Shown here piece after piece: positions 46,194-60,364 of a DNA stretch of 64,000 nt. The notes under the pieces were generated by a model. That model had not been told where the DNA came from. It did no database searches and saw only the letters and a list, made by a program, of their open reading frames with translations. Origin of the DNA: OCS155 cluster bacterium AG-426-D23 (GTDB lineage: Bacteria; Actinomycetota; Acidimicrobiia; Actinomarinales; Actinomarinaceae); contig QCNO01000001.1 in assembly GCA_003213165.1 (NCBI GenBank), positions 202,068 to 266,067 of the forward strand, read 5' to 3'. Positions within the stretch are counted from its first letter, which is position 1; each line of letters begins with the position of its first letter. A program made the translations under genes and the position numbers.

Positions 46194-47315
46194 TTAGTCG
46201 TCGTAAAGACCAAATTCTTGTGCTGCTTCTCTAACAACATCAAACTCAGAGTTATCTGCAGGTACTAAATCAGTCCATCCATAAATTTCGTCCATTAATG
46301 CTCTACCATCTTCAGTAGCAATAAATTCTGACAAAATGTCATAAATTTGTTGTTTAATATCTTCTGGCAAATCTGTTCTTACTGCAATTACGTCATTAGG
46401 AATTTCCTCAGTTATCGCAAATGCTATAACTTTTTCACCTACATCAGGATTTGTTTTTCTTAATGTTCTTCTTGCGTCATCATATGTAACGCCAAATTTA
46501 GCATCACCATTATAAAGACCAGCAATAACACCATCATGTGAACCAGCAAATCTTTGTGTTATGTCACTTGTATAATCAATACCAGCTTTTTTAAGTTGAA
46601 GTGATGGATATAAATATCCAGATGTTGAACCTTCCTCAACAAAAAGTACTTCTTCTCCTAACATAACAGATAGATCAGCTTCACAAGCAAGACCCGGGCT
46701 GGTAGTAACACCATCTCGGACTTCCGGGATTAACCCATCATCACCGAATCCCCAACCTACTTGGAGTGCTTTTACGTCTGGGGGTGAAGTTTCTGTTCCA
46801 GTAACTAAAGTAGGAACTCCATTTATATTTTCAAAAGCTCCAATTACAGGTGTGGAATTACATATACTCGCATCTGTTGTCCAAAATGTTCCATGATAAG
46901 ATCCTGAACCGTATCTAACAGACTTAGCAATTGCTTCAAATCTTCTTGGAAAAGCGTCCATTGCTGTTACATACCCTAAGGTTGCAAAAGCACCAACATC
47001 AGCTTGTCCAGATCCCATAGCAACAAGGAGACCTGAATAGTCGCTTGTTACAATACCTTCCACTTCAATACCCAAACCATCAGATAAAAGTTGCATCATT
47101 GGTTGAATGTTATCTAATAATTCGGCTTGTTCCGCGCTAGGTACAAAGCCAAAAACAATTTTGTCTAAAGTTGGCGCAGCTGTTGTTGCTGGCGCTTCTA
47201 ATGTTTCGACTTCTTCCATAGCAACGGGTTCTTCTACTGTCTCTTCAGCAGTACCACCACAAGCAGTAGCTACTAATGTAAGACAGAGAAGAAGTAGTAA
47301 TGATTTTTTCATCAT
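46194..47315 (-). CDS. phnD: Phosphate/phosphite/phosphonate ABC substrate-binding lipoprotein
   Basis: Lipobox ATAC; FGFVPS, STSGYLYP, GSHD, IPND.IAVR; SD GGAGGA. Confidence 0.9.
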   Translation of the reverse strand: MMKKSLLLLLCLTLVATACGGTAEETVEEPVAMEEVETLEAPATTAAPTLDKIVFGFVPSAEQAELLDNIQPMMQLLSDGLGIEVEGIVTSDYSGLLVAMGSGQADVGAFATLGYVTAMDAFPRRFEAIAKSVRYGSGSYHGTFWTTDASICNSTPVIGAFENINGVPTLVTGTETSPPDVKALQVGWGFGDDGLIPEVRDGVTTSPGLACEADLSVMLGEEVLFVEEGSTSGYLYPSLQLKKAGIDYTSDITQRFAGSHDGVIAGLYNGDAKFGVTYDDARRTLRKTNPDVGEKVIAFAITEEIPNDVIAVRTDLPEDIKQQIYDILSEFIATEDGRALMDEIYGWTDLVPADNSEFDVVREAAQEFGLYDD

Positions 47316-47376: not shown

Positions 47377-47844
47377 TTAAAAATTTGTAAACTTTATTTC
47401 ACCAAAATCTCTAAAAATTATTTCGCCATTTGTATCAAGTACAATAGTTATCGGTTGACCAACTACTTTAAAATAATCTCTTAATTGTGGTGTAGAAAAT
47501 CCAATTCTAAGATTTCCTTTTAAGTTTTCTTTTACCCATTCTAAAGTGGGTGTGTACTCACTATGCGCAAGTGCAATAACATCATATTCTCCCTCTAAAT
47601 TTTCTAATTCAGCCTCCAAGACAGGTAACTCCTGTCTGCAAAGGCCTCAGTAATCGGCCCAGAAAATTATGATTGTTTTTTTGTCTGTAAAATTCTCAAT
47701 AGCAACAACTTCAGATGTATCTATATACTCAAAAGAATTCTCAGTAATAGCATCTTTAGATTCTCCAACCTTTACCAGTTCTTCACTAGCCCCATATGAA
47801 CAAGTAATAAATAACATTATCAATATTGGTAGGTATCGTCTCAT
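47377..47844 (-). CDS. TlpA/redoxin-family thioredoxin-fold selenoprotein (UxxC), 155 aa with UGA recoding
   Basis: Track ORFs 47647-47844 and 47377-47619 are in one frame, separated only by TGA (47647-49). Joined protein reads IIIFWADY-U-GL-C-RQELPVL...VVGQPITIVLDTNGEI. Confidence 0.85.
47611..47646 (-). promoter_or_regulatory. Bacterial SECIS-like stem-loop immediately 3' of the in-frame UGA
   Basis: mRNA GGCCUU-UGC-AGACAGG-AGUUA-CCUGUCU-UG-GAGGCU: perfect 7-bp upper stem, lower stem GGCCUU/GAGGCU, loop 16 nt from UGA with G at loop position 2. Confidence 0.8.
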
Positions 47845-47891
47845 ACACTAATCATAATATTATTGATGAATAACCTTGCTATCCTAAATAT

Positions 47892-59408: not shown

Positions 59409-60239
59409 CTAAAAACTATCGAGTCTTTCAAGGAGAACATCTTTTTCCCCAGGCAACATTTCTACAGTATGTTTACTATTTGGAAACTTACCTGAACCTA
59501 CATCGTCTTTGAATCCTTTTAATGCTTTGGATCTCTCTTTGTTCAATTTATTTTTAATCTCTTGACCATTTCCCCAAGATTTAGCATGTCGTGGCATTTT
59601 AATTTCTGATGTTTCGCCACATATATCTTCAAAGAATAAAAACATTACGTCTCCACCAGAACCTGAACCAAGAGAATTTATTACTAGGGATGTATGTTTT
59701 TTAATTTCAATTAATGCATCCTCTGCAACGCACTCAACTTCTACACCAAAAGCGCCTGCATCTTCTAGTCTCTTCATATCTTTCAGTATTGATAAAGCCT
59801 CTTCGGCTGTTTTACCAACAGTCCTAATACCACCATATTTAGTTGCCATTGAAGGTACCATCCCTACATGACCTTGTACTTGCATGCCTTCTTTTGCTAG
59901 CATTTCTACCACATCAAAACTTCTTGGTGTAAGTACGGAATCAGCCCCTGCCATCATTACATCAAATGCACCACGGAGTATTTCTTCATTTGTAATAAAT
60001 CTTCCAGCAAAAAGTGCAGCTGTGATAAATGTGTTCGGTGCTCCATTTCTTACATCTTGATACCAATCACTTCCAGTAATAATCATATCTATACCTTGGT
60101 TAGCAATTATTTCAGCTTCCACTTTATTGGCAGCTGTAACTTGAGTCATTATTTTATTATTTTTTTTATTTTCTAATATGTCACCAACAGTTATATTTCT
60201 TTCAACTTGCTCATGACCAAATGTATAGATACGTTTCAT
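59409..60239 (-). CDS. Divergent PanB-like (ketopantoate hydroxymethyltransferase family) TIM barrel
   Basis: QGHVGMVP, GGIRTVGKTAEEA, LEDAGAF.VEVECV, GSGSGGD; N-terminal metal-binding motifs altered. Confidence 0.72.
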   Translation of the reverse strand: MKRIYTFGHEQVERNITVGDILENKKNNKIMTQVTAANKVEAEIIANQGIDMIITGSDWYQDVRNGAPNTFITAALFAGRFITNEEILRGAFDVMMAGADSVLTPRSFDVVEMLAKEGMQVQGHVGMVPSMATKYGGIRTVGKTAEEALSILKDMKRLEDAGAFGVEVECVAEDALIEIKKHTSLVINSLGSGSGGDVMFLFFEDICGETSEIKMPRHAKSWGNGQEIKNKLNKERSKALKGFKDDVGSGKFPNSKHTVEMLPGEKDVLLERLDSF

Positions 60240-60364
60240 TTGTATAAGTATAAATACATTTAAATATCAATAATTATATTTTCTTAAACCTGTCATTCAC
60301 CAAGGTATAAATTTTTTAAATTGACTACATTTCCTGAATCAGATTCTTCATTACCATATTTAAA

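Follow-up and report, generated by a model that had tools for sequence, protein, structure and literature searches.

A probable selenoprotein gene for a ResA/TlpA-like redoxin with a predicted membrane anchor in Candidatus Actinomarina

A stretch of 64,000 nucleotides from the genome of OCS155 cluster bacterium AG-426-D23 (contig QCNO01000001.1, positions 202,068 to 266,067), referred to here as the window, contains a gene for a small redoxin that is interrupted by one in-frame TGA codon. A scan of named genomes places the host in Candidatus Actinomarina (OCS155). The assembly from which the window was taken (G000) totals 964 kb in 18 contigs, with a completeness of 86% and a GC content of 33%. 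The redoxin coding sequence is on the minus strand (47377..47844) and runs from an ATG at 47844-47842 to a TAA at 47379-47377, for a total of 155 codons and the stop. With translation table 11, it appears as two open reading frames (ORFs), 47647..47844 (65 aa) and 47377..47619 (80 aa), which share one common frame. When the TGA is read as selenocysteine (Sec, U), the frame encodes a redoxin of 155 residues, MRRYLPILIMLFITCSYGAS...KKTIIIFWADY-U-GLC-RQELPVLEAELE...VVGQPITIVLDTNGEIIF...FTNF, in which U66 is the single interruption. The locus is very probably an intact selenoprotein gene, encoding what is probably an anchored reductase of the ResA/TlpA type, and the "stop" codon within it almost certainly encodes the selenocysteine of the active site.

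Several features can be recognized in this gene, all of them on the minus strand. The UGA codon (47647..47649) occupies the N-terminal, nucleophilic position of a CxxC motif. The resolving cysteine of this U-G-L-C motif, Cys69 (47638..47640), is invariant in alignments A2 and A4. Downstream of the motif is the segment GQPITIVLD, and the Pro131 codon of its G-Q-P (47452..47454) corresponds to the cis-Pro position of the thioredoxin fold. This proline is invariant in 30 sequences, including distant forms that have cysteine in place of Sec. The first 15 codons (47800..47844) encode a putative signal peptide with a hydrophobic stretch and a lipobox-like end, LFIT-C15. A hairpin identified as a selenocysteine insertion sequence (SECIS) lies within the coding sequence (47611..47646). 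An earlier reading of the window, made from the letters without database searches (the sequence-only reading), had claimed that the two ORFs are in one frame and are split only by the TGA, and translation confirmed this. The GQPITIVLD segment, the N-terminal ...LFITC, and a TATGAT box 6 nt before the ATG were also found as it had given them.

The TATGAT box (47851..47856) resembles a -10 element, and a box of this kind recurs at the same spacing in orthologues. It was not called by a consensus promoter scan. The layout upstream of the gene (47845-47885) is kept in orthologues and consists of TAGCAA, about 19 nt, a TAnnnT box, 6 nt, and the ATG. No Shine-Dalgarno sequence is present upstream of the redoxin ATG. 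Together with the conserved layout of the upstream box, this suggests that the redoxin mRNA is leaderless. A gap of 47 nt separates the gene from the divergent cinA.

The TGA codon is conserved throughout the genus. A six-frame search of 60 relatives found an orthologue in 32 congeners (43-73% identity), each with one TGA inside. In all 30 loci that were fetched, the TGA falls in the same column (FWADY-U-[GS]xC-R[QRE]ELP), and the scan of named genomes gave 33 further Actinomarina loci, all with TGA. The 63 Actinomarina loci span 43-94% protein identity and show strong conservation on both sides of the TGA. The sequence-only reading had proposed to look at the codon that relatives carry at this site; it is TGA in all 63 loci and never TGC, TGT, or TGG, and the hairpin is conserved with it.

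Distant homologues (17-25% identity) fall into Cys forms and Sec forms. The 10 Cys forms, with the motif FWA[ST]WCxPCR[QR]ELPVLE, come from Anaerolineaceae, proteobacteria, Terriglobia, and Nocardioides. Six distant Sec forms with TGA were found in Acidimicrobiia, an "Actinomycetes" bin, and an Anaerolineae bin (L087-L090, L094, and L098). These have the motif FWAEWUxxCR[QR]ELPVLE, the same GGAGUUGCC hairpin core, and UUG as the Leu codon, and their genomes appear GC-rich by codons. With these six, the TGA is in one column in 69 of the 69 U-form genes examined. The two groups form a classic Sec/Cys pair. The Sec codon and the SECIS appear to have stayed together in members of two phyla, which could reflect either age or transfer.

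The RNA directly 3' of the UGA, GGCCUUUGC-AGACAGG-AGUUA-CCUGUCU-UGGAGGCU, folds into a hairpin with a minimum free energy (MFE) of -20.8 kcal/mol (z = -3.4). When 200 shuffled sequences were folded, not one was as stable. The upper stem has 7 bp, AGACAGG (47637-47631) pairing with CCUGUCU (47625-47619). The lower stem, GGCCUUUG/UGGAGGCU, is formed by 47646-47639 and 47618-47611. The apical loop, AGUUA (47630-47626), starts 16 nt past the UGA and has G as its second base. The criteria for bacterial SECIS (bSECIS) elements given in PMC13188914 (Fig. 2) are a loop of 3-9 nt, an upper stem with 4-16 bp, G as one of the first two loop bases, a UGA-loop spacing of 16-37 nt, and an MFE of -7.5 kcal/mol or lower. 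The redoxin hairpin agrees with all of these, and 37 of 38 distinct redoxin orthologues likewise have an MFE of -7.5 kcal/mol or lower.

The hairpin had already been proposed in the sequence-only reading. Its fold, its 16-nt spacing, and its loop G were borne out, but the lower stem is particular to this lineage and is not conserved. The conserved part consists of a 6-bp upper stem and the loop only, and the unusual stability of this copy comes from the lower stem. When 42 distinct U-form sequences are compared, 98.4% of the cells of the 6-bp stem are paired, against 45-66% for slid controls. Changes on both sides of the stem are found in 13 cells, and no shuffle attains the observed values. 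Stem pair 19-31 changes from C-G to G-C in eight sequences, and stem pair 20-30 goes from A-U via G-U to G-C in five.

The stem and loop consist of the codons of an R-x-E-L-P-x peptide. The Cys forms can serve as a comparison, as 10 Cys-form genes encode the same CR[QR]ELPVLE peptide. They are 55% paired at the hairpin position, and nine of the 10 have at most two consecutive pairs beside the loop. In the U forms, the loop is AGUUR in 69 of 69 genes, and the Glu codon GAG and the Leu codon UUR are likewise used in all 69, including six from high-GC genomes. In the Cys forms, the Leu codon is CUN in eight of 10 and UUR in two of 10 (Fisher p = 1.7e-9 against the U forms). The encoded peptide alone does not account for the conservation of the hairpin in the U forms. 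This comparison is a stronger argument for a SECIS than the covariation of the stem, and the SECIS is under purifying selection at synonymous sites.

UGA together with a SECIS directs SelB-dependent Sec insertion. The sequence-only reading had implied that the Sec machinery would be found elsewhere in the genome, and selA, selB, selD, and tRNA-Sec were each found to be present in the window's assembly. The selA gene scores 376.6 bits, which is above its cut-off. The start of selB overlaps the selA stop. It encodes 557 aa with a SelB-wing_3 domain (42 bits), and its score of 199.9 bits is below the TIGR00475 cut-off of 242. The selD gene (363 bits; G000 C8:14295-15335, equal to L007:1498-2538) has its own active-site UGA (MRLTEYSHGAGUACK). 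The tRNA-Sec is 93 nt long, has the anticodon UCA, and scores 75.4 bits against a gathering score of 47. In the proposed mechanism, Sec-tRNA(UCA) would be made by SelA and SelD, would be delivered by SelB, and would decode the UGA at 47647-47649. SelB would be recruited by the hairpin, which starts 10 nt past the UGA and has G-U at loop positions 2-3. The hairpin is built from the codons of R-Q-E-L-P-V-L, a motif typical of the whole TlpA-like family.

The family of the redoxin was explored through profiles, structures, and a model. In Pfam, Redoxin, AhpC-TSA, Thioredoxin, and Thioredoxin_8 match at E values of 8e-6 to 2e-4, all under their gathering scores (Redoxin, 26.1 versus 26.6 bits; AhpC-TSA, 25.3 versus 26 bits), and PF13905 is among the matches. 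In NCBIfam, ResA, StoA, TlpA, and DsbE match at E values of 8e-8 to 6e-6, with bit scores against cut-offs of 32.4/170 for ResA, 28.9/230 for TlpA, and 26/123 for DsbE. The redoxin thus belongs to the superfamily but is the equivalog of no named member. In sequence matches to the PDB, the first Cys of the WCxxC motif in WATWCGPCRGELP (2lja) and WASWCTVCKAEFP (3ia1) lines up with U66. These alignments and those with the Cys forms confirmed the earlier placement of the TGA at the first Cys of the thioredoxin motif (FWADY-U-GLC-RQELP).

An AlphaFold prediction from a shallow alignment of close orthologues had a predicted local distance difference test (pLDDT) value of 40 and was discarded. A deeper alignment that included the distant Cys and Sec forms was used instead. 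The resulting model has a pLDDT of 82.9, and the value exceeds 90 for most of residues 41-140. N-terminal strands are seen at 37-42 and 47-51, a helix starts at residue 67, and the model contains the invariant P131. The best folds in the PDB are ResA, a Bacillus thiol-disulfide oxidoreductase, DsbE, Etrx1/2, TlpA, DsbF, CcmG, and StoA. The top matches have template modelling (TM) scores of 0.70-0.75 (target-normalised), root-mean-square deviations of 2-4 A, and identities of 16-23%. The top 50 Foldseek matches in the PDB all belong to the TlpA-like thioredoxin-fold family (cd02966). Because the best structural neighbours are ResA, DsbE, Etrx, and TlpA, the modelled fold class is that of the TlpA-like, extracytoplasmic, membrane-tethered reductase group.

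The N-terminus of the redoxin, MRRYLPILIMLFITC, ends in a cysteine (C15) that is invariant in 20 aligned orthologues. All orthologues have a short basic N-terminus and a hydrophobic stretch followed by Cys, and the distant Sec form L090 has a textbook lipobox, VAASC-GG. LspA was found in 18 of 21 genomes of the genus. The redoxin is probably exported and lipid-anchored at Cys15. The sequence-only reading had suggested an exported or membrane-anchored Sec thiol-disulfide oxidoreductase. This is supported by the fold matches, the Sec machinery, and the conserved UGA and hairpin, with the anchor itself a prediction from the N-terminus.

A catalytic cycle can be proposed for such a protein. The active site would be U66-G-L-C69, opposite cis-Pro131. 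The selenolate would attack the disulfide of a substrate, or an oxidised Cys/Met repair enzyme, outside the cytoplasmic membrane. Cys69 would then resolve the intermediate to a selenenylsulfide, and CcdA would re-reduce this with electrons from cytoplasmic thioredoxin. CcdA was found in 30 of 41 genomes of the genus.

Of the other explanations, the one that survives best accepts a true selenoprotein and gives it an oxidising or detoxifying role, either as a DsbA-like disulfide former or as a selenol peroxidase at the cell surface. Such a role is possible but unlikely. The Pfam families AhpC-TSA and Redoxin do score as well as Thioredoxin, the genome has a DsbB-like protein, and the habitat is sunlit, peroxide-bearing surface water. 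However, the best structural matches are all of the reductase type (ResA, DsbE, Etrx, TlpA, and CcmG), and the genus has CcdA, which usually supplies this class with electrons. The DsbB-like gene, moreover, already has an adjacent Cys-type thioredoxin partner on contig C7. The pair is at G000 C7:72-993 on the plus strand, where the DsbB-like protein (PCRFCWYQRY, cut by the contig end) is followed by a 208-aa thioredoxin-like HWCGFC protein. It is presumably an oxidising, disulfide-forming pair. UbiE-like and MenA-like genes come next, which by their sequence could belong to menaquinone biosynthesis.

A role for the redoxin as CcmG, the thioredoxin of cytochrome c maturation, was also considered and rejected. 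The genus uses cytochrome c maturation system I. In seven genomes (G014:C6, G016:C1, G022:C4, G013:C3, G007:C4, G010:C5, and G009:C1), a separate Cys paralogue of 163-176 aa is encoded about 2 kb away from ccmF. Since it is this paralogue that adjoins ccmF in the relatives, and the Sec gene is found between cinA and the gene for a binding-protein-like lipoprotein, the Sec redoxin is not CcmG.

Some observations weigh against an anchored ResA/TlpA-like selenoprotein reductase. Because the Pfam and NCBIfam scores do not reach the curated cut-offs, the redoxin is assigned to its subfamily by fold and motif. Some orthologues depart from the usual lipobox, with F or T at position -1, so that a signal anchor or cleavage by signal peptidase I is possible. 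The compensatory changes in the hairpin stem probably come from few evolutionary events and are weighed modestly. The neighbourhood of the redoxin gene (cinA/recA, a 373-aa lipoprotein, and an ATPase of the ATP-binding cassette (ABC) type) gives no hint of a substrate. Finally, CcdA, ccmF/ccmC, and LspA were not found in the window's 86%-complete assembly. The ccdA neighbours nth and a ygfZ-like gene are also missing from it, and in a congener (G014:C6:12000-63000) lspA, ccdA, the ccmC/ccmF cluster, and a CcmG-type thioredoxin are all on one contig. This suggests that one block of at least 50 kb is missing from the assembly and that the genes have not been lost.

It is also conceivable, although improbable, that the UGA mostly terminates translation. 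A lipopeptide of 65 residues would then be the main product, and Sec read-through would be minor and dependent on selenium. Bacterial Sec insertion does compete with release factor 2 in studied systems, and selenium is scarce in the surface ocean. Nevertheless, conservation is as strong in the 89 codons downstream of the UGA, among them those for the resolving Cys and the cis-Pro, as it is upstream. Along with the purifying selection on synonymous sites of the SECIS, this points to the full-length product as the one that is selected. The 65-residue stub has no conserved feature beyond the signal peptide.

There is next to no probability that the gene is a pseudogene, or that an error of sequencing or assembly turned a former Cys codon (TGC or TGT) into TGA. 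The split of the frame by table 11 into ORFs of 65 and 80 aa could suggest this, and public gene calls on long contigs give the same halves (65-70 aa and 80 aa), with one half found on 351 contigs. Yet the same TGA, with conserved flanks, is present in the 63 Actinomarina loci and in Sargasso contigs from 2005, and no Cys or other sense codon was found among the 120 best database matches. An assembly error, which the sequence-only reading had named as a way to be wrong, is excluded because the TGA recurs in dozens of independent single-cell and metagenome assemblies and in the Sanger-era Sargasso Sea contigs.

Just as implausible is a reading of the UGA as tryptophan (code 4), or by a general suppressor, to give W66. 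In its favour, W is at the Sec site in 120 of the 120 best full-length database proteins, with Cys in none. The W is in a WxxC context in 119 of these; in the 120th, the W is kept and the downstream Cys is replaced. The genome is also low in GC, as in some code-4 lineages. However, W is called on short contigs, of which the longest has 7.4 kb, and long contigs yield split ORFs. The prediction that annotation pipelines would split the gene therefore holds for long contigs, and on short contigs a full-length W product is called, as expected from gene calling under code 4. In addition, TGA is an ordinary stop in this genome, ending 153 of 693 open frames of at least 200 codons (22%), and tRNA-Trp has the anticodon CCA. 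These two facts remove the code-4 reading. The only tRNA found with a UCA anticodon is tRNA-Sec, and both solved structures and the Cys-form homologues have the catalytic Cys of CxxC at this site.

The redoxin gene appears to be one of several selenoprotein genes in this bacterium. A total of five were counted in the genome, selD included. A scan for in-frame TGA codons with long open flanks was too noisy, as it gave 94 and then 17 candidates that were mostly antisense or adjacent genes. A clean set was reached by restricting the scan to redox motifs and the AGUUR hairpin. There are 48 AGUUR-loop hairpins with a stem of at least 5 bp genome-wide on both strands. Of these, three follow an in-frame redox-motif TGA with long open flanks, and they belong to the redoxin, a SelW-like protein, and a 157-aa thioredoxin. 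The sequence-only reading had called for a search for further genes with UGA and a SECIS, and the latter two were among those found.

The Rdx/SelW-like gene (G000 C2:10030-10266, minus strand) encodes 78 aa with the motif CVVU (PF10262, E 5.8e-16) and has an AGUUA loop 17 nt past its UGA. The second gene (G000 C4:1041-1514, plus strand) encodes a membrane-anchored thioredoxin of 157 aa with FYSDY-U-LGC (Pfam Thioredoxin, E 6e-6) and N-terminal transmembrane segments. In its SECIS, a stem of 8 bp carries an AGUUG loop that lies 26 nt past the UGA, and one TGA is kept in 35 of 41 congeners at 44-90% identity (loci L102-L121). A CMD/AhpD-like gene (G000 C1:38914-39474, minus strand) encodes 186 aa with C-E-Y-U...H (Pfam CMD, E 4e-7), and its hairpin, UCUCC-GGUC-GGAGA, lies about 25 nt past the UGA with a GGUC loop. 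In selD, no convincing hairpin (z = -0.25) and no AGUUR loop were found after the UGA. A candidate alternative, UCAG-GUA-CUGA, is a small hairpin about 30 nt downstream.

Other candidates were rejected. The gene panB (C1:261476-262363; window 59409-60296, minus strand) has a TGA nine codons into an extended frame and no redox motif. Its frame is that of ketopantoate hydroxymethyltransferase (Pfam E 2e-32), and the region with the TGA resembles upstream junk. The sites at C1:267749-268144 and C12:134-319 are of low complexity and are unsupported.

The redoxin gene is flanked by divergent cinA/recA on one side and by a co-directional 373-aa lipoprotein gene and an ABC ATPase gene on the other. 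The lipoprotein gene (46194-47315, minus strand) is 61 nt downstream of the redoxin. Its product has the lipobox VATAC and two internal cysteines, and in sequence it resembles a phosphonate-type substrate-binding protein. The adjacency of the redoxin and this lipoprotein is kept in 30 of 33 Actinomarina loci, though the gene order of the genus has been reported as fluid. The neighbourhood of the distant U form L090 (trpD, a large membrane protein, and an ABC ATPase) gave no hint of function.

The redoxin family has been seen before. Zhang, Fomenko and Gladyshev (2005; PMC1088965) listed it in their supplement as a Sec-containing "Thioredoxin" (UXXC) of the Sargasso Sea. Their entry AACY01095051, MKRFILIFLVFIACSQGAEV...FWADYuSVCRQELPVLEAELENLQEEYD...KFTNF, is identical to one of the orthologues examined here (locus L026), and the window's redoxin is 68% identical to it. 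Five further FWADYu sequences are listed there, with TGA at the same position. These entries are anonymous metagenome reads, given without host, anchor, genomic context, or machinery. More recently, a preprint on the genus ('Actinomarina, resolved'; bioRxiv 10.64898/2026.04.03.716425) reported that all 84 complete Actinomarina genomes contain selA, selC, a selB that is divergent, and a selD of the Sec form. It gives about five predicted deep-Sep selenoproteins per genome, of which most families are called uncharacterised. Rfam models found no SECIS in that study, and its supplement contains no selenoprotein sequences. The preprint thus treats the same genus and the same Sec machinery, and it does not mention redoxin, thiol, disulfide, TlpA, or lipoprotein. 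The 78-aa SelW-like protein is probably the family that it describes as '78 aa, uncharacterised, most abundant'.

Similar proteins are known from other bacteria. ResA of B. subtilis, TlpA of Bradyrhizobium, CcmG/DsbE, DsbF of M. tuberculosis, and Etrx1/Etrx2 of S. pneumoniae are anchored extracytoplasmic thioredoxin folds. The ResA/TlpA/CcmG/Etrx group has W-C-x-x-C, x-E-L-P, and a cis-Pro, and its nucleophile is Cys whereas that of the Actinomarina redoxin is Sec. By its description in catalogues of prokaryotic selenoproteomes (PMC9312934, PMC13188914), a 'thiol-disulfide isomerase-like' selenoprotein family is likewise TlpA-like (cd02966/PF13905), has UxxC, and comes from marine metagenomes. 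There is also a ResA/TlpA-like selenoprotein family whose motif starts with W-A-x-x-U-G, as does that of the redoxin, but its motif is U-G-C and its model has 354 positions. The redoxin, with U-G-x-C, 155 aa, and 22 bits against a cut-off of 300, was rejected as a member.

The novelty of the gene was therefore overrated in the sequence-only reading, as the family was predicted to contain Sec in 2005 and the machinery was reported for the genus in 2026. The redoxin is very probably a genuine, unannotated selenoprotein, and because the 2005 Sargasso Sea survey had already listed the family, the result is a correction of annotation rather than a new family. What is added here is the host and the predicted anchor, the distinction from CcmG, and the Cys-form control. 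An AGUUR-loop SECIS that is common to three genes and is kept in distant Sec forms is also new.

The general principles of selenoprotein biology are unchanged by this finding. For annotation, a core gene that is halved as "hypothetical" or given a Trp across hundreds of public contigs can be replaced with one selenoprotein of 155 aa. The AGUUR-loop hairpin provides a simple search pattern tuned to the lineage, and the Sec and Cys forms of one peptide motif are a natural control for how a SECIS is written into codons. The gene also shows a use of the costly Sec machinery in a genome of about 1 Mb, with a redox enzyme, probably anchored at the surface, and its RNA signal in every Actinomarina lineage examined. 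A wider proposal, offered with low confidence, is that Actinomarina may display selenol chemistry outside its membrane through two conserved UxxC selenoproteins, the redoxin and the 157-aa protein, with the AGUUR SECIS shared with the SelW-like gene. If both proteins were essential for surface defence or repair against photochemical oxidants, one of the most abundant ocean bacteria would depend on selenium as an obligate trace nutrient. In that case, selenium could be a missing ingredient for bringing Actinomarina into culture.

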